Positions 4,789-39,718 of a DNA stretch of 43,968 nt are shown here, piece by piece. Every line of letters starts with the position of its first letter. Within the stretch, counting starts at the first letter, position 1. Under the pieces are notes generated by a model. The model was not told the DNA's origin. It was given only the letters and a program-made list of their open reading frames with translations, and did no database searches. This stretch comes from an uncultured Gammaproteobacteria bacterium (GTDB lineage Bacteria; Patescibacteriota; Patescibacteriia; Patescibacteriales; UBA12075): the NCBI GenBank assembly GCA_964505405.1, contig CAZDHZ010000002.1, positions 1 to 43,968 of the forward strand. The letters run 5' to 3'. The position numbers were made by a program, and so were the translations under genes.

Positions 4789-4956
4789 TTACAAATCTTT
4801 ACAAATTTACAAATATTAATTTAAATATTCACAGCAATAAATAAAAAATTATAATAAATACATTTTGATTAATAAAAATTTTAAAATTAGAATTTATAAA
4901 TTTATTATTTTATTCTAATTTGTGAATTCGTAATCTGTATATTTGTAATTAGTAAC
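4781..4956. repeat. AT-rich long hairpin element whose arms carry the TAATTACAAAT motif
   Basis: GTTACTAATTACAAAT (4781-4796) is the reverse complement of ATTTGTAATTAGTAAC (4941-4956). The left arm overlaps the queH stop codon. There is an inner TTAGAAT/ATTCTAA hairpin. Confidence 0.6.
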
Positions 4957-4978
4957 TATAAAGTGTTATAATAGCAAC

Positions 4979-6022
4979 ATGGATATATCTTATTATTTTA
5001 AGCAAGCTATAGAGAATAAGGCTTCTGATATTCATTTAGTGGAAGGCAGTATTCCGGCTTTAAGAATTAATGGGGAGTTAGTGCGTTTTAAGGAGAGCCC
5101 TATACCTTTTGGTGAATTGCGCCATTCTGTTTTTAACCTTCTAGACAAAAATATCCAGGAAAGATTTGAACGCAAAAAAGATATTGATATTTCTTTGGAA
5201 TTGTTTGATAATAGATTTCGTATTAATTTGCATCTGCAAGGCGGTAAAATAGGTCTTTCTGCTAGGATGATTCCAAGGTTTATACCCGAACCGGATAAAA
5301 TAAATTTTAGTGAAACAATTTATAATTTAACGCACCTAAAAGATGGATTGATTTTAGTAACTGGACCTTCCGGAGTAGGAAAATCCACTACTCTGGCTTC
5401 TATGATAAATATTATTAATAATGAAAGAAGATCTCATATTATTACCATAGAAGATCCAATTGAATATATTTTTGAAGATAAACAGAGTATAGTGGAGCAA
5501 AGGCAATTAGGGCGGGATACGGAAAGCTTTGCTGCGGCTTTAAAGTCCGCTTTACGCCAGGATCCTAATATTATTATGGTAGGTGAGATGCGGGATTTGG
5601 AAACGGTTTCGGCGGCTTTAACTGCCGCTACAACCGGACACCTTGTTCTTTCAACTTTACATACTTCAACTGCGGCTGAGACGATTGAAAGAATTCTAGA
5701 TATGTTTCCAAATGAAAGGCATAAGTTAGTTGCTGATCAACTAGCTTCTGTTTTAAGGGCGGTAATCGCTCAGCAACTTCTTCCTTCAAAAAAAGGAGAT
5801 TTAGTTGTAGCTCGGGAAATACTCATTAATACGAGAGCGGTAGCCAACTTAATTCAACAAAAACAAATTGAACAAATAAATAATATTATTCAAACTAGCG
5901 CTGGAGATGGAATGATTACCATGAATAAATCAATAGATAATTTATTAAAGGAGGGAAAAATCACTCAGCATGTAGCTCAAAATAGAAAACGAGACATGGA
6001 AACTCATGCGGTTTATTATTAA
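4979..6022 (+). CDS. pilT: Type IV pilus retraction ATPase PilT
   Basis: 347 aa with GPSGVGKSTT Walker A, IIMVGEMRD, LSTLHT His-box and an AVANLIQQKQ motif. Length and order of motifs match the PilT family. Confidence 0.85.
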   Translation: MDISYYFKQAIENKASDIHLVEGSIPALRINGELVRFKESPIPFGELRHSVFNLLDKNIQERFERKKDIDISLELFDNRFRINLHLQGGKIGLSARMIPRFIPEPDKINFSETIYNLTHLKDGLILVTGPSGVGKSTTLASMINIINNERRSHIITIEDPIEYIFEDKQSIVEQRQLGRDTESFAAALKSALRQDPNIIMVGEMRDLETVSAALTAATTGHLVLSTLHTSTAAETIERILDMFPNERHKLVADQLASVLRAVIAQQLLPSKKGDLVVAREILINTRAVANLIQQKQIEQINNIIQTSAGDGMITMNKSIDNLLKEGKITQHVAQNRKRDMETHAVYY

Positions 6023-11443: not shown

Positions 11444-11495
11444 AATCTCACAGGCATCCGATGCCTTAGCTAAGGCATCGGATGCCTGTGAGATT
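11444..11495. terminator. Perfect 52-bp palindrome (putative terminator) with nested sub-palindromes
   Basis: AATCTCACAGGCATCCGATGCCTTAG | CTAAGGCATCGGATGCCTGTGAGATT. Each arm itself contains the palindrome AGGCATC(C/G)GATGCCT. Confidence 0.7.
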
Positions 11496-11504
11496 AGATA
11501 AATT

Positions 11505-12638
11505 ATGAAAATATTATTATTTACATTAGAATATCCGCCCTTTAAAGGGGGGATCGCTAACTATTATGGTAATTTAGTTAGGCATTGTCCAAAAGACAAT
11601 GAAATTTTTGTTTTACATAATAATGAAAATAAATTATTGTCTAATAAAATCTATCCGAAGTGGATTCCGGCTTTTTTTACTTTATACAAAAGCATTAAAA
11701 AGAATAAAATTAATCATGTAATAGTGGGGCATATTTTGCCTCTTGGAACTGTTACTTTTTTATTAAGCAAGATATTTAATTTTAAATATAGTATAGTTTT
11801 ACATGGCATGGATCTTGAATATGCCTTAAAACGAAAACAAAAAAAATATTTAGCAAAATTAATTTTAAAACATGCCCAAACTATTATTTCTACAAATTCT
11901 TATGTAGAAAAAAAGATGTTAAATTTTTTAGGATCTAAATTTGATCATAAAAGTTTTGTGGTTAATCCGGGAGTATCCTCGCGTAACGTGGAATCCTTCG
12001 GCTCCGTTCCCTCCAAAACGGCGAGCAAGCAGGACGGTCGTGGAACGTGGAACGCAGGTGAATTTTCTAATTTTAGAAAGAAGCATGATTTAGAGGGGAA
12101 ATTTATTTTGTTTACTGTGGGGCGTTTAGTGAGGCGGAAGGGGCAGGACAGGGTTATTGAGGCGGTGCAGAATTTAAGGGAGATTATCCCTAATTTATAT
12201 TATTATATTGCGGGTGCTGGGGAGGATGAAATGTATCTTAAGAATTTAGCAAAAAATAATTCTCATGTTAAATTTTTGGGTGCCATAGATGATGCGGAAA
12301 AAGATTTATGGCTTAAGAATTGTGATATATTTATCATGCCTTCGCGTGATATTAATGGAGACGTGGAAGGATTTGGGATCGTATATTTAGAAGCCGCTCT
12401 GGCCGGAAAACCGGTTATAGCTGGGCGAAGCGGAGGAGTTTCGGACGCGGTTGTGGATTATGAAACTGGAATTTTAGTGGAACCTGATAATGTTGATAGT
12501 ATAGAAGACGCTATTCAAGAACTTTATAGAAATTTTGACCTCAGACAAGAGCTGGGGGATAATGCCATGAAAAGAGCAATAAGCTCATTTAGTTGGAAAG
12601 GGCAGGCGGGGAAGTTTTTTGAGATTTGTGGAAATTAA
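11505..12638 (+). CDS. GT-B fold glycosyltransferase, family 4 (Glycos_transf_1)
   Basis: TVGRLVRRKG, PSRDINGDVEGFGIVYLEAALAGKPVIA and GILVEP motifs of GT4 enzymes. Contains an atypical GC-rich segment in the inter-domain linker. Confidence 0.85.
   Translation: MKILLFTLEYPPFKGGIANYYGNLVRHCPKDNEIFVLHNNENKLLSNKIYPKWIPAFFTLYKSIKKNKINHVIVGHILPLGTVTFLLSKIFNFKYSIVLHGMDLEYALKRKQKKYLAKLILKHAQTIISTNSYVEKKMLNFLGSKFDHKSFVVNPGVSSRNVESFGSVPSKTASKQDGRGTWNAGEFSNFRKKHDLEGKFILFTVGRLVRRKGQDRVIEAVQNLREIIPNLYYYIAGAGEDEMYLKNLAKNNSHVKFLGAIDDAEKDLWLKNCDIFIMPSRDINGDVEGFGIVYLEAALAGKPVIAGRSGGVSDAVVDYETGILVEPDNVDSIEDAIQELYRNFDLRQELGDNAMKRAISSFSWKGQAGKFFEICGN
11975..12063. repeat. GC-rich in-frame segment in the GT4 linker, probably repeat-derived
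   Basis: GC content is locally much higher than the gene. Shares GGCGAGCAAGCAGG (compare GGCGAGCGATAGCGAGG at 12706 and ACGAGCGGAGCGAGG at 9748), CGCGTAACG (compare GTTACGCG at 12911) and a terminal AGGTGAATT motif. Confidence 0.45.
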
Positions 12639-12653
12639 GTAATTCGATAATGG

Positions 12654-12884
12654 TTTTTTCTCTTTGTACTCCCAGGACATTCTTTCTTCACCTTTGTCAT
12701 CCCTGGCGAGCGATAGCGAGGGAAAGGGATCCAGGAAGAATAGCTATATGCTACTTAAATCTTCTTAGCTTTAAAAATATTTATATCTCTTCCTCCTGGA
12801 TCCCCGATAGCCTGCGGCTTCGAGGATGACAAAGGTGAATACCAAAGGCAGAGATAATGTCTTGGGATGACAAAGAGAAGAGGG
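12654..12884. mobile_element. MITE-like nested-palindromic GC-rich repeat element, copy 1
   Basis: Three nested inverted repeats: CTCTTTGTACTCCCAGGACATT / AATGTCTTGGGATGACAAAGAGAAG, TTCACCTTTGTCATCC / GGATGACAAAGGTGAA, and GGATCCAGGAAG / CTTCCTCCTGGATCC. They surround an AT-rich core that is about 80 percent identical, in inverted orientation, to 19391-19458. Confidence 0.65.
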
Positions 12885-12910
12885 AATAATTTAATAAAAT
12901 AATTTCATAT

Positions 12911-14229: not shown

Positions 14230-14295
14230 TTTGAATTTTTTCTTTTTTGTAGATTTAACTAATTTGTTGACAAAACATCTAAACAGAATTTCCTC

Positions 14296-14432
14296 CCCCT
14301 TGTCATATAAAAGAGGTGAATTGCGAAGCAAGAGAGGCTACCCTGGGGTATGGCGACAGCCAGACAAGGTGAATTTCGAAGAAAGAGAGAGTCCCCTGGG
14401 GGAGAAAGTGCCCTGGGGTACAAAAAGTAAGG
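14296..14432. repeat. GC-rich mosaic repeat, family 2, copy 1
   Basis: Built of sub-units AGGTGAATTnCGAAGnAAGAGAG...CCCTGGGG. About 85 percent identical to the reverse complement of 19240-19350. Confidence 0.7.
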
Positions 14433-19239: not shown

Positions 19240-19350
19240 CTTTCAAAATTCACCTTGTACCCCAGGGCACTTTCTCTTTCTTCGGAATTCACCTTGTCTA
19301 GCTATTGCCATATCCAGGGCAGCTTCTCTTGCTTCGCAATTCATCTCTTT
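19240..19350. repeat. GC-rich mosaic repeat, family 2, copy 2 (inverted relative to 14296-14432)
   Basis: AATTCACCTTGTACCCCAGGGCACTTTCTCTTTCTTCGGAATTCACCTTGTCTAGC...CTTCTCTTGCTTCGCAATTCA is the reverse-complement counterpart of 14310-14425. Confidence 0.7.
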
Positions 19351-19508
19351 CACTTTTGTCATCCTGGGGGCGCGAAGCGCAACCCGGGATCCAGGAGAAA
19401 AAGATATAAATATTTTTAAATCTTAAAAGGTTTAAATAGCGTATAGCTTTTCCTCCTGGATCCCGGATACCCGCCAAAAGGGCGGGTTCCAGGATGACAA
19501 AGGTGGGT
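19351..19508. mobile_element. MITE-like nested-palindromic GC-rich repeat element, copy 2
   Basis: Terminal arms CACTTTTGTCATCC / GGATGACAAAGGTG. Inner arms GGGATCCAGGAG / CTCCTGGATCCC, each adjacent to a small GC hairpin. The AT-rich core matches copy 1 in opposite orientation. Confidence 0.65.
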
Positions 19509-19638
19509 AATCTACTATTGTGAGTTTTGATGTAATTTTGTCATTAAATTAGTTAAATCTATAGGGATGACAAAAAAAATGAGATAGCCGATATAATAAT
19601 TAGCGCTAAAACATTAAATTATAAAACAGAATCTTATT

Positions 19639-24518: not shown

Positions 24519-25337
24519 ATGAAAATAATTCAAGTACAATTTACTTCTTGGGATAAGATTTATGATTTTAGCTCAGGAAATATTGATCTTAACAAAGGCG
24601 ATAAAGTGGTTGTTAAATCCGATTCCGGAATGGAAATCGCTACAGTTATTTCTTTTCGCGAGAGTAAAGAAGATGAGCAAGAAAATTATGAGCAGATATT
24701 GCGTAAAGCTAATATTCATGATTTAGAGAAAATGCTGGTGAAAAATGAAAAAAAAGAAGCTTTGATTTATGCTCGTCAGATGAAAGATAGGCATAATCTT
24801 TCTATGAAATTTATTGATGTTCATTTTTCCTTTGATGGTTCAAAAATAACCTTTGCTTTTATTGCCGATGGGCGAGTTGATTTTCGGGAATTAGTAAAAG
24901 ATCTAACTAGGCATTTTGGAAAAAGTATTAGATTGCAGCAAATCGGTATTAGAGATGAGGCTAAAATTATGGGTGATTGTGGACATTGTGGAAGACCACT
25001 TTGTTGTCAGGGTCATTTAACTAACTTAGTTTCTATTAGCTCTGATATGGCTGAATTGCAAGAATGTTCTCATAGAGGGTCAGACCGAATTTCTGGGATT
25101 TGTGGAAGATTAATGTGTTGTTTAGCCTACGAACAATACGAGTATGAACAATTATCCTCTGAGATGCCTAAGATGGGAACAAAAGTTAATGTAGATGGAA
25201 AAAAGGGAATAGTTGTTGGCCGTCATCTTATTAAAAGATCTGTTGATGTTGAGTTTCCTGATGAAAATAAAAAAGGAGAAACAGTAGTTATAGAGGTTGA
25301 TCTTGATCGGAATAAAAACAAGAAAGAAGAAAAATAA
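24519..25337 (+). CDS. PSP1 C-terminal domain protein (RicT/YaaT-like)
   Basis: The GDKVVVKSDSGMEIATV N-terminal barrel, the PSP1 core and the Cys-rich GDCGHCGRPLCC...GICGRLMCCL segment match the RicT family. Confidence 0.75.
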   Translation: MKIIQVQFTSWDKIYDFSSGNIDLNKGDKVVVKSDSGMEIATVISFRESKEDEQENYEQILRKANIHDLEKMLVKNEKKEALIYARQMKDRHNLSMKFIDVHFSFDGSKITFAFIADGRVDFRELVKDLTRHFGKSIRLQQIGIRDEAKIMGDCGHCGRPLCCQGHLTNLVSISSDMAELQECSHRGSDRISGICGRLMCCLAYEQYEYEQLSSEMPKMGTKVNVDGKKGIVVGRHLIKRSVDVEFPDENKKGETVVIEVDLDRNKNKKEEK

Positions 25338-25409
25338 AAAAAATTTAGGGGTGAAACCTCTAACGCGTTAGAGGTTTCACCCCTAAATTTTTTTTATTTT
25401 TCTTCTTTT
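25322..25409. terminator. Near-perfect 88-bp palindrome, bidirectional terminator between convergent genes
   Basis: Symmetric about 25365/25366. The core is AGGGGTGAAACCTCTAACG | CGTTAGAGGTTTCACCCCT, flanked by A-run and T-run. The arms extend ~44 nt with one mismatch at the outermost position and cover both stop codons. Confidence 0.8.
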
Positions 25410-28012: not shown

Positions 28013-28091
28013 AAATAAGAATGAAAATAAAAATAAGAGAAATAAGAATATAAATTTCTTATTTCTCTTATTTTTATTTTCATTCTTATTT
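28013..28091. terminator. Perfect 36-bp-stem AT-rich hairpin
   Basis: AAATAAGAATGAAAATAAAAATAAGAGAAATAAGAA (28013-28048) is the exact reverse complement of 28056-28091. The loop is 7 nt. It begins 2 nt after the stop codon. Confidence 0.7.
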
Positions 28092-30068: not shown

Positions 30069-30197
30069 TTAAATATTTAAATTTTATTCTCAAGACGGTT
30101 TTTGTCGCACACAGAAATCGTTTTTTTGTTTTAGTTCCTTAATTTGAATATTAATCCAAATTAAGGTATAATATAGATAGATTTTATACTTTTCCCC

Positions 30198-33100
30198 ATG
30201 TCACAAAAAGATAAAAAAACTGAGATTATTTATACGGACTCGGATATTAAGGTATCCCGTTTTTTATTGGATTTACCGGCTAAATTTAATGAAGAAATTC
30301 ATGATTTAGCCTCAAAGAAAGAAAAGAAAATATTTAATAAAATTAAAAGTAAGGCTAAAATTTTTAAAGTTCTTAGCTTAAAAAAAAATTTAATTAAAAA
30401 TGCGGGGGATTTTATTAAGAAACAAAAGCTTAAGGGAAAGGAGAAAAAAGAAGTTAAACCTATTTTTTCTGATTATAAATTATTGGGAGAAGCACGAAAG
30501 GAAAAAGAAAAACAAAGTGGGAATATGGAGATCCTGAAACCTGCCCGAAATGCTTCGCATAACGATGTAGGCGGGCAAGTTCAGGATGACAGGGTGGGGA
30601 ATTATTCTGATCTAATAAGTAGAACCGTTAAGCGTGTAGACAAGCAAGATGATGAAAAAAAAATCAATATAGTAAAAAAACAAAAAACCAATAAACATCA
30701 TTACAAAATAAAGCGTTTAGCTTTCTTCCCTTTATTTAAAACCTTATATTTTTTGATTAAAAAAATCGTAATATTTTTAGCTCAAATTTCTCATGGAATG
30801 GGCTGGATTACGGTTTTTTTATTTAGATTTATTTTTATTTTATTTTTTAAAATATTTAAATATATACTTAAATATATATTTTTTTCAAAAAAAACCAAGC
30901 CTAAGAAAAACACTATAAAAATAGATAACAAAAAAATTCAAAAGCAGAGACTTGGTTTTTTTGATATTTTTAAATTTAGAAAAAATAAAAAAACTACAAT
31001 AAATTTTGTTTTAGACAATAAAGATAATAAAAAACAGTTCATACAAGCGAGCAAGATCCTGAAACCCTCCTACGTTGAAACTTCGGAGGACGGGCAAGTT
31101 CAGGATGACAAGGTGGGAATTCAGGATGACAAGATGGGAGTTCAGAGTGAAGTGGGTAATTATAATGAGATGAGAAATAAAGTTGTTAAAAGTGAAAAAA
31201 ATAAAAAAGAAAAGTTATATAAAAAATTTACATACTTTATTTTAAGAAAAAATGAAGTTCAAAAACCTAAAATTAAAAATAGCTTTAAATTTAAAAAATT
31301 AGCTTTTCGTCCGACGCTTGGATTTTTAATGATTCTAATAATTTTTGCCCTACCTTTTAAAGCCTTTACTTATTATAAGGATTTGAATTTATTAAAGGGA
31401 AGAGTGCTTGAGGCTAGCGAGGAGGCTGTTCTAAATATGGTAGAAGGTTCTCGGGGGATTCAGGATAAGAATTTTAATGAGGCTGAATCAGAATTTAAAA
31501 CTGCCGAGGACAATTTTTTAAAAGCACAAGATGAGATAAAAAATTTAAGCTTATTCTTTGGCGTTCTGGGAAATGTTATTCCCAAAAAGGAAATTAAATT
31601 AGCAGGAGAAGCAGATAATATTTTGGAGGCCGGATCTCTAAGCGCGCGGATTGGAATAGATTTAAATGATTTATTATCTGATTTTGATTCTAAGGACATA
31701 AAAGCGGAAAAAATAATTAATTCATTATCAGATAAAACTAAAAGTTTAGAGGAAAATATTCTAAAATTAAATTTAATTATAAATGACATTGATCCTAAAA
31801 TAATACCAGAAGAATATTATGAAGATTTTCAAAATATTCAGGAAAAATTTTCGCTTTTGTCTGGAACGATAAGCGAATTTTCCAAATTAATAAAAGCTTT
31901 AAAAATTTTTAGTGGATTTTATAATGACGAGCGCTATCTTTTAGTTTTTCAAAATAATACGGAGATGCGAGGAAGCGGAGGGTTTATCGGAAGTTATGCT
32001 TTAGCCGATTTGCGCAATGGAGAAATAATCAATCTGGAAATTCCAAAAGGTGGAAGTTATGATACGGAAGGAGGACTTTATGAAAAAATAATTGCTCCCA
32101 AGCCTCTTCATTTAGTTAATCCTCTTTGGCATTTTTGGGATGCTAATTGGTGGCCAGATTGGAGTATGAGTGCTGAAAAATTAATGTGGTTTTATGAAAA
32201 AAGCGGAGGACCAACCGTAGATGGAGTAATTGCATTTACGCCTACTGTTTTAGAGCGTATGCTTGAAATTATTGGTCCTTTGGACATGTCTTTAGAGTAT
32301 GGAAAAATTATTGATGCTCATAATTTTTGGGAAATTACACAGGAAATTGTAGAAGAAAAACCCCGAGAGGAAAAAACAGAAATAAATTCGGGAGAAATAA
32401 AAAATGAACCTAAAAAAATAATAGGGGACATGATGCATGAAATTATTTATAAGCTTAAAGATGGACTTGATAAAGAGAAAATTCTAAGTTTAGCTAATAG
32501 CTTGAACCGAAGCTTGGATGAAAAGCATTTAATGTTTTATTTTAAAGATTCAGAATTAAAAAATATAGCAGAGGATTATGGATGGGATGGTAAAATCAGA
32601 GACAGCTCTGGAGATTATTTGATGGTGGTTAATTCAAATATCGCCGGAGCTAAAAGCGATAAATCTATAAAAGAAGAAATTATGCATCAAAGCGAAGTAC
32701 AGGAGGACGGAAGCATTATTAATACTCTTAAAATAAAAAGGATTCATAATGCAATTAGGGGAACCGATTTTATTGGAGTGCGCAATGTTGACTGGCTACG
32801 CGTTTATGTTCCTTTAGGCTCCGAATTAATCAGCTTTAAGGGGGCTCAAAAACCAGATAAATATTATTTTGAAGATCCTGATATTAGTTGGCAGGAAGAT
32901 GAGGATGTTTTATTAAATGAAGGCCAGGCGCTTACTCATCCGGAAAGTAAAACTAAAATTTATGAAGAAAAAAATAAAACAGTTTTTGCTAATTGGTGTA
33001 TGGTTGATCCCGGAGAGACAATCGAAATTATTATCAGATACAAATTACCATTTAAAATGGAATTTAAAACAGAAGCTAATAATTTTAAAGAAAAAATTGA

Positions 33101-33326
33101 AAAATATTTTAATCCAAATATTAAACCCCTCATCCCGTACTCTATTTTAGTGCAAAAACAGCCCGGATCGCTGGGAAGTAAATTCAGTTCTAAATTAATT
33201 TTATCTAAAAATATGCAGGCGGTCTGGTCCTATCCATCTATCGTAGAAACAGAATACGGAGGATGGAATGTGGAAGATATTTTATTAACTGATAAATACT
33301 ACGCACTTGCTGCGAGTTTAAAATAA
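30198..33326 (+). CDS. DUF4012-like membrane-anchored protein with long Lys-rich N-terminal extension
   Basis: 1042-aa ORF. From about residue 370 there is a TM segment, a coiled-coil-like region, and then FQNNTEMRGSGGFIGSYA, which I recognise as the DUF4012 signature. The N-terminal ~360 aa are low complexity with two repeat-derived inserts. Confidence 0.65.
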   Translation: MSQKDKKTEIIYTDSDIKVSRFLLDLPAKFNEEIHDLASKKEKKIFNKIKSKAKIFKVLSLKKNLIKNAGDFIKKQKLKGKEKKEVKPIFSDYKLLGEARKEKEKQSGNMEILKPARNASHNDVGGQVQDDRVGNYSDLISRTVKRVDKQDDEKKINIVKKQKTNKHHYKIKRLAFFPLFKTLYFLIKKIVIFLAQISHGMGWITVFLFRFIFILFFKIFKYILKYIFFSKKTKPKKNTIKIDNKKIQKQRLGFFDIFKFRKNKKTTINFVLDNKDNKKQFIQASKILKPSYVETSEDGQVQDDKVGIQDDKMGVQSEVGNYNEMRNKVVKSEKNKKEKLYKKFTYFILRKNEVQKPKIKNSFKFKKLAFRPTLGFLMILIIFALPFKAFTYYKDLNLLKGRVLEASEEAVLNMVEGSRGIQDKNFNEAESEFKTAEDNFLKAQDEIKNLSLFFGVLGNVIPKKEIKLAGEADNILEAGSLSARIGIDLNDLLSDFDSKDIKAEKIINSLSDKTKSLEENILKLNLIINDIDPKIIPEEYYEDFQNIQEKFSLLSGTISEFSKLIKALKIFSGFYNDERYLLVFQNNTEMRGSGGFIGSYALADLRNGEIINLEIPKGGSYDTEGGLYEKIIAPKPLHLVNPLWHFWDANWWPDWSMSAEKLMWFYEKSGGPTVDGVIAFTPTVLERMLEIIGPLDMSLEYGKIIDAHNFWEITQEIVEEKPREEKTEINSGEIKNEPKKIIGDMMHEIIYKLKDGLDKEKILSLANSLNRSLDEKHLMFYFKDSELKNIAEDYGWDGKIRDSSGDYLMVVNSNIAGAKSDKSIKEEIMHQSEVQEDGSIINTLKIKRIHNAIRGTDFIGVRNVDWLRVYVPLGSELISFKGAQKPDKYYFEDPDISWQEDEDVLLNEGQALTHPESKTKIYEEKNKTVFANWCMVDPGETIEIIIRYKLPFKMEFKTEANNFKEKIEKYFNPNIKPLIPYSILVQKQPGSLGSKFSSKLILSKNMQAVWSYPSIVETEYGGWNVEDILLTDKYYALAASLK
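30529..30603. repeat. GC-rich repeat half-unit, in-frame copy A
   Basis: AGATCCTGAAACCTGCCCG...CGGGCAAGTTCAGGATGACAGGGTGGGGAATT has the same architecture as the right arm of 19456-19508. Translated as ILKPARNASHNDVGGQVQDDRVGNY. Confidence 0.7.
31054..31160. repeat. GC-rich repeat half-unit, in-frame copy B with triplicated 3' arm
   Basis: AGATCCTGAAACCCTCC...GGAGGACGGGCAAGTTCAGGATGACAAGGTGGGAA followed by TTCAGGATGACAAGATGGGAG and TTCAGAGTGAAGTGGGTAA. Translated as ILKPSYVETSEDGQVQDDKVGIQDDKMGVQSEVGNY. Confidence 0.7.
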
Positions 33327-33329
33327 ATT

Positions 33330-35849
33330 ATGGATGAAGCAATACAAGATAATATTATTTTTAATGAAAATTTTGGTTCACAATTTGATTTTTCTTGGAT
33401 TTTTTGGATTTTTTTGGTTTTCTTAATTGCTATTATTATTATTTTAATCAAAAAATATATAAATTATTTAATACATCACAGTACTTATTTTAAACATTCC
33501 ATATTTTTAATTAGATTACCAAAAGAAAGACCGGGAGAAAATAAACAGGAATTTACAGTGCAATCTTTACATGAAGAAATAGCTAAAGGTGAAACTATAT
33601 TTTCAAGTATTGGTGGTTTAAGAGCGCAAAGAGGGATTAAGGCCTTTTTTCTTGGAAGAAACGATCATTTTTCTTTTGAGATTGTGGCTAATAATAAAAA
33701 AATTGCTTTTTACATAGTAGCGCCCGCTAAGATGAGCCGTTATATTGAACAGGAAGTGCATGCTTATTATCCAGACGCGGTTATTGAAGAGACTGAGGAT
33801 TATAATATTTTTAAACCCAATTCAAAAATTTTAGCTGGATTTTTAAAAACTCGCCGTAATCGTATCTTTCCTTTAAAAACTTATAAGAAACAAGATACTG
33901 ATCCGATGAATTCTTTAATTAATGTTATGTCTAAATTAGATGAAGATGAAGGATTAGCTATCCAATATTTAGTCCGTAGCGCCAAAGCGGGCTGGCATAG
34001 AGATGCGGGTCAGGTTACTCAAAAAGTTCATGAAGGTAAAACTTTAAAGGAAGCAATTAAAGGAGTCGGAAAAAATATTTTCTGGCAGGCCATTAGTGAA
34101 ATAGCAAGTGCCGCGAAACCAATGTCTGAGCAAGAAAAGCAAAAACTTCAAAGTCAGCAACAGCAAAGAATGACGCAGATGGAAGAAGAAATGCTTAAGG
34201 GTCTTGAAGAAAAAAATTCTAAAGCCGGACTAGACGTTAATTTAAGAATAATTGTTAGCACTAAAGATAAAGGGCGGGCTAATTTATATAAAGAAAATTT
34301 ATATAATGCTTTTTCCCAATATAATTTTTATGAATATGGAAATAGCTTTAGCCATAAGATAAAAACTAATAAACAAAAAAAGTTAATAGAAGATTTTATT
34401 TATCGGCGTTTTCATAAAAATATAGCCTTTTTATTAAATACAGAAGAATTGGCCGGTCTTTATCATTTTCCATTAAAGGATATGGAGACTCCGAATATTC
34501 TTTGGCTTACTGCTCGGCATGCGCCAGCTCCGAATAATATTCCTGATGAAGGAATAATACTCGGCCATAATGTTTATAGAGGCGTTGTTAAGGACATAAG
34601 AATAAAAAAAGATGATCGGCGACGGCATATGTATGTAATCGGAAAATCCGGCGGAGGTAAATCAAAATTTATTGCCAACATGGCTATCCAGGATATTTTA
34701 AATGGGGAGGGAGTTGGAGTTTTGGATCCGCACGGAGATTTAATTGAGGATATTTTAAAAAAGATTCCGCCGGAAAGAGCTGAAGATGTTGTTGTTTTTT
34801 CCCCGTCTGATTTAGAGCGTCCCCTAGGACTTAATTTAATTGAATATGATCCAAATTATCCAGAACAGAAAACTTTTTTGATTAATGAAATGATTAAAAT
34901 TTTTGATAAACTGTATGATTTAAAATCTACTGGTGGACCAATTTTTGAACAATATATGCGTAATGCTTTACTTTTAATTATGGATGATCCTGATTCAGGT
35001 TCTACTTTGATGGAAGTTCCGAAAGTTTTAGCTGATGCTAAATTCAGAAATATGAAATTAGAAAAATGCAAGGATCCAACCGTAGTTGCTTTTTGGAAAG
35101 AAGAAGCGGAAAAAGCTGGGGGAGACGCTGCGCTTGCTAATGTAGTTCCTTATGTTACTTCAAAATTAACTCAGTTTATTTCAAATGATACTATGCGTCC
35201 GATTATTGGACAGCAACACAGTGCTTTTAATCTGCGTGATATAATGGACAAACAAAAAATTCTGCTCATAGATTTAAGTAAGGGACAAATTGGAGAAATG
35301 AACGCTTTTTTACTCGGCATGATTTTGATTGGAAAAATTTTAATGTCCGCGCTTTCTCGCTCGGATATTTCAGAAGACAAGCGAAAAGATTTTTATTTAT
35401 ATATTGATGAATTTCAAAATTTTACCACTGATTCAATTTCTTCTATTTTGTCCGAGGCTCGAAAATATGGCCTCAATTTAATTATCGCCCATCAATATTT
35501 AGGACAATTAGTTAAAAACCAGGACACCTCTATTAAAGACGCTGTTTTCGGTAATGTAGGAACATGGGTAAGTCTTAAAATCGGTGCGGATGACGCGGAA
35601 GCCTTGGAAAAAGAGATGAGTCCAGTATTTAATCAATATGATTTATTAAATGTTGATAAATTCTCCGCTTATGTTAAATTATTAATTGACAATGCAGCCA
35701 GCCGTCCTTTCTCTCTAAGAATGCCTTGGCCTTTGCCCGGAACAGAAAGAGAAGGAATTTCTTCTAAAATCAGGACTTTGAGCCGCTTAAAATATGGACG
35801 GGATAGAAATGTTGTAGAGGCGGAAATTAGAAAAAGATCTAACTATTAA
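33330..35849 (+). CDS. VirD4/TraD/TraG-like P-loop NTPase (type IV coupling-protein-like) with N-terminal TM and unknown ~350-aa domain
   Basis: GKSGGGKSKF Walker A, LYIDEFQNF Walker B and LIIAHQYLGQL motif typical of the TraG/TraD C-terminal module. Starts 4 nt after the DUF4012-like stop. Confidence 0.7.
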   Translation: MDEAIQDNIIFNENFGSQFDFSWIFWIFLVFLIAIIIILIKKYINYLIHHSTYFKHSIFLIRLPKERPGENKQEFTVQSLHEEIAKGETIFSSIGGLRAQRGIKAFFLGRNDHFSFEIVANNKKIAFYIVAPAKMSRYIEQEVHAYYPDAVIEETEDYNIFKPNSKILAGFLKTRRNRIFPLKTYKKQDTDPMNSLINVMSKLDEDEGLAIQYLVRSAKAGWHRDAGQVTQKVHEGKTLKEAIKGVGKNIFWQAISEIASAAKPMSEQEKQKLQSQQQQRMTQMEEEMLKGLEEKNSKAGLDVNLRIIVSTKDKGRANLYKENLYNAFSQYNFYEYGNSFSHKIKTNKQKKLIEDFIYRRFHKNIAFLLNTEELAGLYHFPLKDMETPNILWLTARHAPAPNNIPDEGIILGHNVYRGVVKDIRIKKDDRRRHMYVIGKSGGGKSKFIANMAIQDILNGEGVGVLDPHGDLIEDILKKIPPERAEDVVVFSPSDLERPLGLNLIEYDPNYPEQKTFLINEMIKIFDKLYDLKSTGGPIFEQYMRNALLLIMDDPDSGSTLMEVPKVLADAKFRNMKLEKCKDPTVVAFWKEEAEKAGGDAALANVVPYVTSKLTQFISNDTMRPIIGQQHSAFNLRDIMDKQKILLIDLSKGQIGEMNAFLLGMILIGKILMSALSRSDISEDKRKDFYLYIDEFQNFTTDSISSILSEARKYGLNLIIAHQYLGQLVKNQDTSIKDAVFGNVGTWVSLKIGADDAEALEKEMSPVFNQYDLLNVDKFSAYVKLLIDNAASRPFSLRMPWPLPGTEREGISSKIRTLSRLKYGRDRNVVEAEIRKRSNY

Positions 35850-39225: not shown

Positions 39226-39256
39226 TTCGGAGATCGTCTAATGGCCCGCCTGCAAC

Positions 39257-39493
39257 GTGTATTATACTTATGTTTTAAAGAGCTATCGAGATTTAAAATT
39301 ATATATTGGATGGACGGATGATTTGAGCTCAAGATTTATTAAACATCAAAAAGGTCTAGTGCTATCAACAAAAAACAGAAGACCTTTTAAGTTGGTTTAT
39401 TACGAAGCGTGCCTAAGTAAAGAAGGAGCTATTAAAAGAGAAAAACAGTTAAAAACTGGATTTGGAAGAAAATATTTAAAAAATAGAATATAA
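39257..39493 (+). CDS. Small GIY-YIG nuclease-domain protein (78 aa)
   Basis: YYTYVLKS...LYIGWTDDLSSRFIKH...YYEAC...AIKREKQLK pattern of stand-alone GIY-YIG domain proteins. GTG start. Flanked by direct repeats. Confidence 0.8.
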   Translation: MYYTYVLKSYRDLKLYIGWTDDLSSRFIKHQKGLVLSTKNRRPFKLVYYEACLSKEGAIKREKQLKTGFGRKYLKNRI

Positions 39494-39496
39494 TTT

Positions 39497-39570
39497 TCGG
39501 AGATCGTCTAATGGTAGGACATTTGGTTCTGGTCCAAAGAATCGGGGTTCGAATCCCTGTCTCCGAGCCA
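39497..39570 (+). tRNA. tRNA-Gln (anticodon CTG), CCA encoded
   Basis: Manual cloverleaf: acceptor TCGGAGA/TCTCCGA (U1:A72), D stem GTCT/GGAC, anticodon stem TTTGG/CCAAA, loop TTCTGGT, T arm CGGGG-TTCGAAT-CCCTG, discriminator G, then CCA. Confidence 0.85.
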
Positions 39571-39718
39571 CGAAAAATGGCTGCGCCATCTCGTGGCGCG
39601 CCACATCAGCATAGACGTGTCGAGAGCCACTTACATTAATATTAGATACCATTTTTGACGTGAGCCACGTGGTAGCGAAACTACTTTACGTGGCAAGGAA
39701 TGTGAATTATTTATCTTT

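Follow-up and report, generated by a model that had tools for sequence, protein, structure and literature searches.

In-frame islands of a nested, TGTC-tagged hairpin repeat in a DUF4012 gene of an AT-rich, probably Patescibacteria genome

How did two GC-rich palindromic islands come to lie in frame within one gene of an AT-rich bacterial genome? We addressed this question in a 43,968-nt stretch of contig CAZDHZ010000002.1 (NCBI GenBank assembly GCA_964505405.1, positions 1 to 43,968 of the forward strand), henceforth referred to as the window, which has a base composition of 29.7% G+C. Gene content, base composition and the closest matches of its hairpin elements make an origin in the Patescibacteria probable. 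The islands, A (30529-30603, + strand) and B (31054-31160, +), are part of a 1042-aa open reading frame (ORF; 30198-33326, +) that encodes a DUF4012 protein with a Lys-rich N-terminal extension. An initial annotation, made from the sequence alone, had described them as palindromic half-units inserted in frame, analogous to the Rickettsia palindromic elements (RPEs). With a probability of roughly 0.75, we read A and B as two separate insertions, both in frame, of a repeat that is a nested hairpin and belongs to the superfamily of (C/T)GTC-tagged repetitive extragenic palindromes (REPs) and Ssn-related motifs (SRMs).

Structure of the islands and their absence from orthologues

Both GC-rich islands were found where they had initially been placed, with the arms and inner hairpin described for them. 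Island A (75 nt; encoded reading EILKPARNASHNDVGGQVQDDRVGNY) consists of a 5′ arm GATCCTGAAAC (30530-30540, +), a unique inner hairpin (30541-30579, +), a 3′ arm TTCAGGATGAC (30580-30590, +) and the tag GACA (TGTC on the minus strand), which ends at 30591 and is followed by the tail GGGTGGGGAAT. Island B (107 nt; encoded reading KILKPSYVETSEDGQVQDDKVGIQDDKMGVQSEVGNY) has a 5′ arm (31055-31065, +), an inner hairpin CCTCC..GGAGG plus ACGGGCAAG (31066-31098, +) and an array of 21-nt units that start at 31099 and 31120. Its 3′ arm had been called triplicated. Tandem Repeats Finder recovered the 21-nt period (31099-31145, 2.2 copies, 92% matches), but the third unit, from ~31141 to 31160, is degenerate. 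The term half-units does not fit, as both islands are complete nested hairpins plus 3′-arm repeats.

The arms common to the two islands are GATCCTGAAAC ... GGGCAAGTTCAGGATGACA. The 5′ word GATCCTGAAAC is exact in both, and the 3′ word CGGGCAAGTTCAGGATGACA(A/G)GGTGGG is identical at 26 of 27 positions (repeat family D17; 3 matches versus 0 expected). The centers differ, each being its own small hairpin within a longer outer stem. This outer stem is predicted for both islands; the fold of island A has a z score of -2.8 relative to shuffled sequences, and island B as a whole folds no better than shuffles. The minus strand of the unit reads TGTC, then ATCCTGAA (an 8-bp stem), a loop, TTCAGGAT and a short tail that starts with C. 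In both islands ATCCTGAA pairs with TTCAGGAT. Checked for the terminal inverted repeats and target-site duplication of a MITE, the islands have arms that are inverted repeats, and a direct word flanks island A only: GTGGGAAT (30517-30524, +) repeats the word GTGGGGAAT of the 3′ tail (30594-30602), and the units of the arm array in island B are spaced by the same word. With its significance estimated by hand, this word may be what remains of an upstream arm unit, or a target duplication. Because of this repetition, island A may start ~12 nt before 30529.

We compared the window protein with its relatives, as the initial annotation had proposed. The orthologues P0002 (68% identity, on the syntenic contig L001) and P0003 (49%) are gapped at both islands and lack homologous peptides there, and both retain the conserved N-terminus, the transmembrane (TM) segments and the core. 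The DNA flanks align well with those of the orthologues, with 66 nt gapped at island A and 66 + 48 nt at island B. Both islands are retained in four near-identical proteins (97-100% identity to that of the window), among which island A shows one Q-to-H change. Since these proteins come from separate NCBI, JGI and ENA records, the islands are real sequence that is fixed in this population rather than an artefact.

The DUF4012 domain occupies residues 578-715 (Pfam PF13196, E 7.9e-24), and hydropathy places TM-like segments at residues 174-195, 197-230 and 367-393. Both islands had been assigned to an N-terminal extension upstream of the membrane region. This holds for island A (residues 111-136), which precedes the first TM pair, whereas island B (residues 286-322) lies between that pair and the third segment. 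Relative to the 68% orthologue, the ratio of nonsynonymous to synonymous substitution rates (dN/dS) is 0.27 for residues 1-60, 0.20 for the first two TM segments, 0.18 for the third and 0.13 for the core, compared with 0.83 and 0.49 for the island-bearing linkers. The islands occupy the least constrained parts of the N-terminal extension. Both linkers are strongly basic (Lys-rich) and probably cytoplasmic, whereas each island carries a net acidic charge. Predicted peptides across the islands include NASHNDVGGQVQDDR, VGNYSDLISR, ILKPSYVETSEDGQVQDDK and MGVQSEVGNYNEMR.

We conclude that the N-terminal extension is translated, because the dN/dS of its conserved blocks (0.18-0.27) is that of purifying selection and because the ATG at 30198 is preceded by a terminator-like hairpin (30092-30124) and, at 30144-30172, by the region's best promoter-like site. 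The same evidence rules out a start codon 3′ of 31160 and places the start upstream of the islands. Both islands are in frame in this ORF and have the same orientation, as had been noted initially. We give this agreement little weight because only one of the three sense frames of each island is free of stop codons. Surviving insertions are therefore those that leave the ORF intact, and the shared frame of A and B reflects a survivorship filter rather than design.

The gene 3′ of the DUF4012 gene (33330-35849) encodes an 839-aa TraG/VirD4-like coupling ATPase (TrwB_AAD_bind, T4SS-DNA_transf, DUF87). The pairing of these two genes is also kept in the relative L001.

Related units in the window and in other genomes

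The proposed kinship of the islands with intergenic elements of the window proved formally significant. The two-arm pattern GATCCN{20,49}GGATGACA has exactly six matches in the window and none in 100 shuffles. Two of the matches are the islands (30530-30591, +, and 31055-31110, +), and the other four are the intergenic units U4 (12695-12731, -), U1 (12799-12831, +), U2 (19357-19391, -) and U3 (19459-19499, +). The 9-mer AGGATGACA is present six times versus 0.16 expected, and every copy belongs to an island or to one of the intergenic palindromes at 12.7 and 19.4 kb. When tagged hairpins were sought generically (G + AT-starting 8-nt arm ... complementary arm + GAC), 6 matches were obtained versus 0.9 expected, in the same elements only. 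The initial annotation had named three observations that would speak against insertion, and each came out the other way: the orthologues lack the peptides, the similarity to the intergenic elements is significant and the start codon lies upstream.

The intergenic units are part of composite palindromes. In E1 (12631-12906), U4 and U1 lie tail to tail around an AT-rich core (12726-12811). The core of E3 (19251-19575), which carries U2 and U3, is the reverse complement of the E1 core, and degenerate arm modules are present on its left side. The intergenic element E2 (14236-14432) has GGTGAAT..CGAAG..CCCTGG modules in common with E3 and is without an intact tagged hairpin.

Separated by 6.5 kb, the AT-rich cores of E1 and E3 (12726-12811 and 19379-19464) form a pair of 86-nt inverted repeats with 85% complementarity. 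Among other assemblies of this organism, one 6.6-kb contig terminates inside both cores. These repeats break assemblies, and inversion between them could occur. The presence or absence of E1 and E3 in other assemblies was uninformative, as contigs terminate within the repeats, as repeats would predict.

A GT4 glycosyltransferase gene (11505-12638) contains a 100-nt island of 58% G+C (11965-12064) that encodes ~20 residues, VESFGSVPSKTASKQDGRGTW. This insert is missing from the 14 closest homologues and is weakly similar to the hairpin family (26 versus 19.3 ± 2.3, maximum 28); it may be a third, decayed in-frame insertion. The window also has three unrelated perfect intergenic palindromes, at 11447-11492 (46 nt in total, about -41 kcal/mol), 25323-25408 (43-nt arms) and 28013-28091 (36-nt arms), which are probably bidirectional terminators.

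We ran two public scans, one of a genome collection using the 19-mer GGGCAAGTTCAGGATGACA and one of a metagenome collection using the two-arm pattern. The 19-mer was detected at 30 genome loci versus ~4 expected by hand calculation. Approximately 16 of these 30 loci have the full architecture GATCCTGAAACCC-TTCGGCCTCGCTCAGGGC-GGGCAAGTTCAGGATGACA. Eight of them are metagenome-assembled genomes of the Patescibacteria group, and the remainder include Chloroflexota, Flavobacteriia, Ignavibacteria, Nitrospirales and Planctomycetota. The two-arm pattern was detected in at least 120 metagenome stretches, on contigs of 29-58% G+C among the matches listed. The arms enclose highly diverse GC-rich inner hairpins, and the simplest form is GATCCTGAAACAAGTTCAGGATGAC, with a 5-nt loop. 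Among the matches listed, stem complementarity was perfect in 110 of 118 simple hairpins, with three middle stem positions left free. Six stem variants account for these positions: CCT/AGG (58), GCT/AGC (25), CCC/GGG (12), GCC/GGC (7), TCC/GGA (4) and TCT/AGA (4). Extra copies of the 3′ arm follow 13% of 217 complete hairpins, with a modal period of 21-22 nt, as in island B. Other searches returned little. For the island B peptide, a collection of 5.8 billion proteins held no candidate with three shared words, a literature search by the sequence words of the unit returned primers only, and an Rfam scan matched a tRNA alone.

Copies of the family also lie within genes elsewhere. In the fetched loci, 15 out of 164 copies are in open frames with at least 60 codons on either side. 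Pfam-confirmed hosts of in-frame copies are ribosomal protein L1, cysteinyl-tRNA synthetase, TatD, UDP-glucose dehydrogenase, GAPDH, a Mur ligase (two copies), YchF (two copies), a CCA-adding/poly(A) polymerase, a TPS-domain protein (with a tandem IAVVQDD) and a class I (Trp/Tyr-type) tRNA synthetase. In the simple hairpin, only three of the six reading frames lack stop codons (consensus translated by hand). The 15 in-frame copies are read as ILKQVQDD (nine times) or CHPELVSGS (six times), and never as the hydrophobic VILNLFQD.

Two other arrangements of the family were observed. An intergenic tandem array of ~140-nt units (L004:2250-2600; IMGVR_UViG_2937460283_000002) adjoins a 298-aa ORF, and its units contain arm repeats of 21-22 nt together with two hairpins, GATCCTGAAAC/TTCAGGATGAC and GTCATTCTGAC..GTCAGAATC. 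Approximately 15 metagenome contigs (L036, L037, L049, L054, L061, L078, L081, L098, L125, L126, L141 and others) have one nested copy in common, within the common flanks CC.ATTTGGTGA - element - ..AAATTTCAAATAT.TTTGG. This copy is a conserved locus or a larger repeat of an abundant freshwater or sediment organism.

We clustered all ORFs within 2 kb of the elements to find recurrent neighbors. The sole recurrent neighbor is a single-domain GIY-YIG protein of ~95 aa (motifs ..YIGVT..REKQLK.WHR.WKINLI..). In seven loci (L039, L050, L069, L083, L137, L142 and L154), a hairpin is found 0-42 nt from its gene, and in all seven that gene is bracketed by inverted hairpin copies (GTCATCCTGAACTTGTTTCAGGATC - ORF - GATCCTGAAACAAGTTCAGGATGAC), often with arm arrays on the outward side. 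These hairpin-flanked proteins have sub-threshold GIY-YIG matches only in NCBIfam, and their closest solved structures are UPF0213 proteins (E about 0.002). The only candidate nuclease of the window is also a single-domain GIY-YIG protein (39257-39493, +; 78 aa). It scores 46 bits (E 2e-12) against the profile of the hairpin-flanked proteins and has a Pfam GIY-YIG annotation in L003.

The window GIY-YIG gene lies just 5′ of a tRNA-Gln gene (39497-39570). A 19-nt direct repeat, TTCGGAGATCGTCTAATGG, flanks the GIY-YIG gene at 39226-39244 and 39496-39514, and its second copy is the 5′ end of the tRNA. The arrangement suggests a small cassette that entered at the tRNA gene, duplicating the start of the tRNA. 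Directly 3′ of the tRNA, a GC-rich region (39571-39700) contains two other hairpins (CCACGA..TCGTGG and GCCACGTGG..CACGTGGC) of a different repeat type. At L142:4400-5800, a hairpin - GIY-YIG - hairpin cassette (~4913-5255) is flanked by a ~48-nt direct repeat of host sequence, ACCTGTAATAAATCGAAAGGAAAGATTAATTTTGTAGAAAATTTTAAA, a duplication that is unusually long for a transposon.

Weighing the explanations

The unit is multi-copy in this genome and widespread elsewhere, and the islands are absent from orthologues, frame-compatible, located in weakly constrained linkers and fixed in four near-identical strains. We assigned them to the tagged-REP kind because they have the tag and the stem of these repeats. 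As insertions, the islands are genuine but unremarkable examples of peptides added to a protein by selfish DNA.

Several results weigh against this reading or against parts of it. The center of island A has no significant relative, the best being an 11-mer match. Neither a clean empty site nor a target duplication is definable at either island, because the linkers are too diverged from those of the orthologues, and no mobility event was observed. The nested units scored poorly with R1, a covariance model derived from 31 simple hairpins (E 0.2-4.6; 0.2-0.9 for U4, U2 and U1, 4.6 for island B, island A unlisted). This model penalizes long loop insertions and does not serve as a test, and we replaced it by pattern and structure scans with shuffles. 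The published SRM motif, HGTCWYN(0-2)YYVSBRHN(0-5)WNVSBRGN(0-2)RNCYNB, matches none of the units in the window, although it matches the control, the Neisseria NTS repeat, and it matches none of the simple GTCATCCTGAAC hairpins in their six stem variants. The window GIY-YIG gene is without flanking hairpins, and we infer the tie of the flanking GIY-YIG genes to Ssn from the gene layout in related loci.

The two islands might not be independent: one could have been copied from the other, or an N-terminal module of peptide and transmembrane segment could have been duplicated, with the arms kept alike by gene conversion. The arms are indeed 100% and 96% identical, and the protein flanks 3′ of the islands are weakly similar (K.K.LAF.P + TM segment; score 51 versus 31 ± 5.8, reached by 2 of 500 shuffles), which hints at an old duplication of a membrane module. 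However, the island flanks have no DNA similarity, and the same arms recur in hundreds of unrelated contigs. The center of island B matches an element of another organism (L033; score 46 versus 17 ± 2.2 shuffled) and is unrelated to that of island A; therefore, A and B are not copies of each other. The orthologue on L001 has both TM modules but neither island, so any module duplication predates the islands, and we rejected tandem duplication of the module as their origin. We consider this alternative as a whole improbable. Selection for the peptides themselves, for example as acidic interaction patches in a basic linker with nucleotide conservation as a by-product, seems to us very improbable. 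The net acidic charge of both islands in Lys-rich linkers, their retention in four near-identical strains and the restriction of in-frame copies to two hydrophilic readings fit such modules. Yet the compared strains are too close to reveal selection, the orthologues lack the islands, and the same DNA is found between genes, in unrelated proteins and on either strand. Conservation applies to a base-paired stem, which shows compensatory changes, and not to a peptide.

The hairpins might instead act in cis, as DNA marks for a host Ssn-type nuclease that limits recombination or transformation at a surface-protein locus, which is the role proposed for the Neisseria NTS, or as elements of RNA stability or pausing. 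Neisseria NTS repeats cluster at membrane-protein genes and modulate transformation (PMC11893778), the outer stems of the islands are predicted to fold, and the window lies within a cell-envelope/glycosyltransferase region that also bears intergenic copies. A cis role of this kind is nonetheless unlikely, given that the orthologues manage without the islands, that the fold of the whole island B is unexceptional and that just 2% of Neisseria NTS repeats are intragenic (PMC11893778).

The copies probably spread as non-autonomous derivatives of a small GIY-YIG (Ssn-like) cassette bracketed by inverted hairpins. The nuclease would act on the hairpin extruded in single-stranded DNA. Cutting beside the tag followed by repair, or slippage, could yield the arm arrays, and cutting and repair at the extruded hairpin could produce the nested hairpins. 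The acidic peptides of 25-37 residues would be tolerated neutral passengers and not selected modules. A broader proposal, which we put forward tentatively and hold to be possible rather than probable, is that TGTC-tagged nested hairpins together with GIY-YIG (Ssn-like) cassettes are active as a system in uncultivated bacteria, the Patescibacteria among them. This system would routinely write short hydrophilic peptides into housekeeping proteins, and nuclease cutting on the tag side would make the 21-22-nt arrays and place one hairpin inside the loop of another. A pair of single-stranded DNA nuclease and hairpin would then be a general source of lineage-specific protein insertions in small-genome bacteria, and Rickettsia RPE-4 and RPE-6, Neisseria NTS and the elements described here would form one mechanistic class.

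The results have practical consequences for annotation. GC-rich islands in AT-rich genes of such genomes need not be taken for domains or assembly errors: they can be recognized as hairpin insertions by the signature GATCCTGAA ... TTCAGGATGAC(A/G) and the peptide readout ILK..VQDD or HPE..VSGS. Hairpins outside the published SRM motif, such as TGTCATCCTGAACTTGTTTCAGGATCT, are concrete candidate substrates for Ssn-type nucleases. The islands bring Rickettsia-type in-frame palindromes, CGTC/TGTC-tagged REPs and Ssn nuclease/hairpin pairs into one picture. That picture now takes in an AT-rich genome that is probably of the Patescibacteria, and at least ten housekeeping or secreted proteins encoded on environmental contigs.

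Comparison with known systems

In-frame palindromic repeats are documented in Rickettsia, in other REP-bearing bacteria, among ERIC and BOX elements and in the GC clusters of yeast mitochondria. The initial claim of novelty for the lineage is thus only partly sustained: we found no description of such repeats for Patescibacteria in the searchable literature, but in-frame copies had already been documented outside Rickettsia. The yeast mitochondrial GC clusters, of which var1 carries an example, are GC-rich palindromes with terminal repeats in an AT-rich genome, mostly intergenic and in frame in a protein gene. These clusters belong to an organelle and have no sequence relationship to our elements. 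The parallel is an analogy only, and we know of no GIY-YIG/hairpin cassette for them. The REP/REPIN system and its REP-associated tyrosine transposases (RAYTs) resemble the elements described here in combining short hairpin repeats with a gene for a hairpin-specific single-stranded DNA enzyme that is flanked by inverted copies. That system differs in having a GTAG tag and a Y1 (IS200/IS605-like) transposase, in place of the TGTC tag and the GIY-YIG nuclease gene.

In Neisseria, NTS repeats (CGTCATTCCCGCG...GCGGGAATC) and the related SRM hairpins flank ssnA, the product of which is a single-domain GIY-YIG nuclease that cuts single-stranded DNA next to the hairpin (Chenal et al. 2025, PMC11893778). 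The NTS-ssnA-NTS layout was likened to an insertion sequence by its authors (PMC11893778). Our elements share the oriented design GTCAT - stem - loop - stem - ATC and, in the seven related loci, the small single-domain GIY-YIG gene with inverted copies on both sides. Canonical NTS-like repeats (TGTCATTCCCGC...) are present in the same fetched loci. The intragenic share differs, as ~9% of our sampled copies are in long ORFs in a rough, biased sample, compared with the 2% of N. meningitidis.

CGTC-tagged REPs have a tag that is often TGTC (or CCTC), an 8-9-bp stem starting A-T/T-A, a 4-5-nt loop and a tail of approximately CCA (Di Nocera, De Gregorio and Rocco 2013, PMC3733652). They were found in five phyla, and no dedicated transposase was identified for them (PMC3733652). 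All six units of the window read TGTC-AT... on the minus strand and have an 8-bp stem starting A-T/T-A, and the metagenome copies carry mostly A after GGATGAC (giving TGTC) and sometimes G (giving CGTC). Copies are dispersed, often in opposed pairs, and six units are present in 44 kb of this genome. Units U1-U4 end in GGAT-CCA-GG, whereas the islands end in CTC and CTT. The short loop is absent: the islands have 33-39 nt in its place, forming the second hairpin, and U1-U4 have 20-28 nt between the arms, although some published CGTC REP families have other loops (PMC3733652). Island B differs further in carrying the 21-nt arm array, and the host, AT-rich and probably of the Patescibacteria, is from a group outside the 2013 coverage. 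We placed the stem ATCCTGAA by the described design. Intragenic CGTC REPs encode 20-30 residues, sometimes twice per ORF (PMC3733652), and our family likewise has in-frame intragenic copies.

RPE-1 (Ogata et al. 2000) is described, as summarized in PMC10969869, as a palindromic repeat of ~100-150 bp in Rickettsia that lies in frame in many unrelated genes, where its peptides are tolerated. The islands are similarly inserted in frame and missing from orthologues, and their family occurs in unrelated protein genes (the window gene and ten host families elsewhere). They measure 75 and 107 nt, unlike RPE-1, with which they were compared by description only. Among the CGTC-tagged REPs, Neisseria dRS3 is CGTC-1, and RPE-6 and RPE-4 of R. 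conorii are CGTC-1 and CGTC-4, respectively (PMC3733652). Because RPE-4 and RPE-6 belong to the CGTC/TGTC REPs and the islands match that design, the comparison with Rickettsia drawn in the initial annotation is supported, and the link is more than an analogy.

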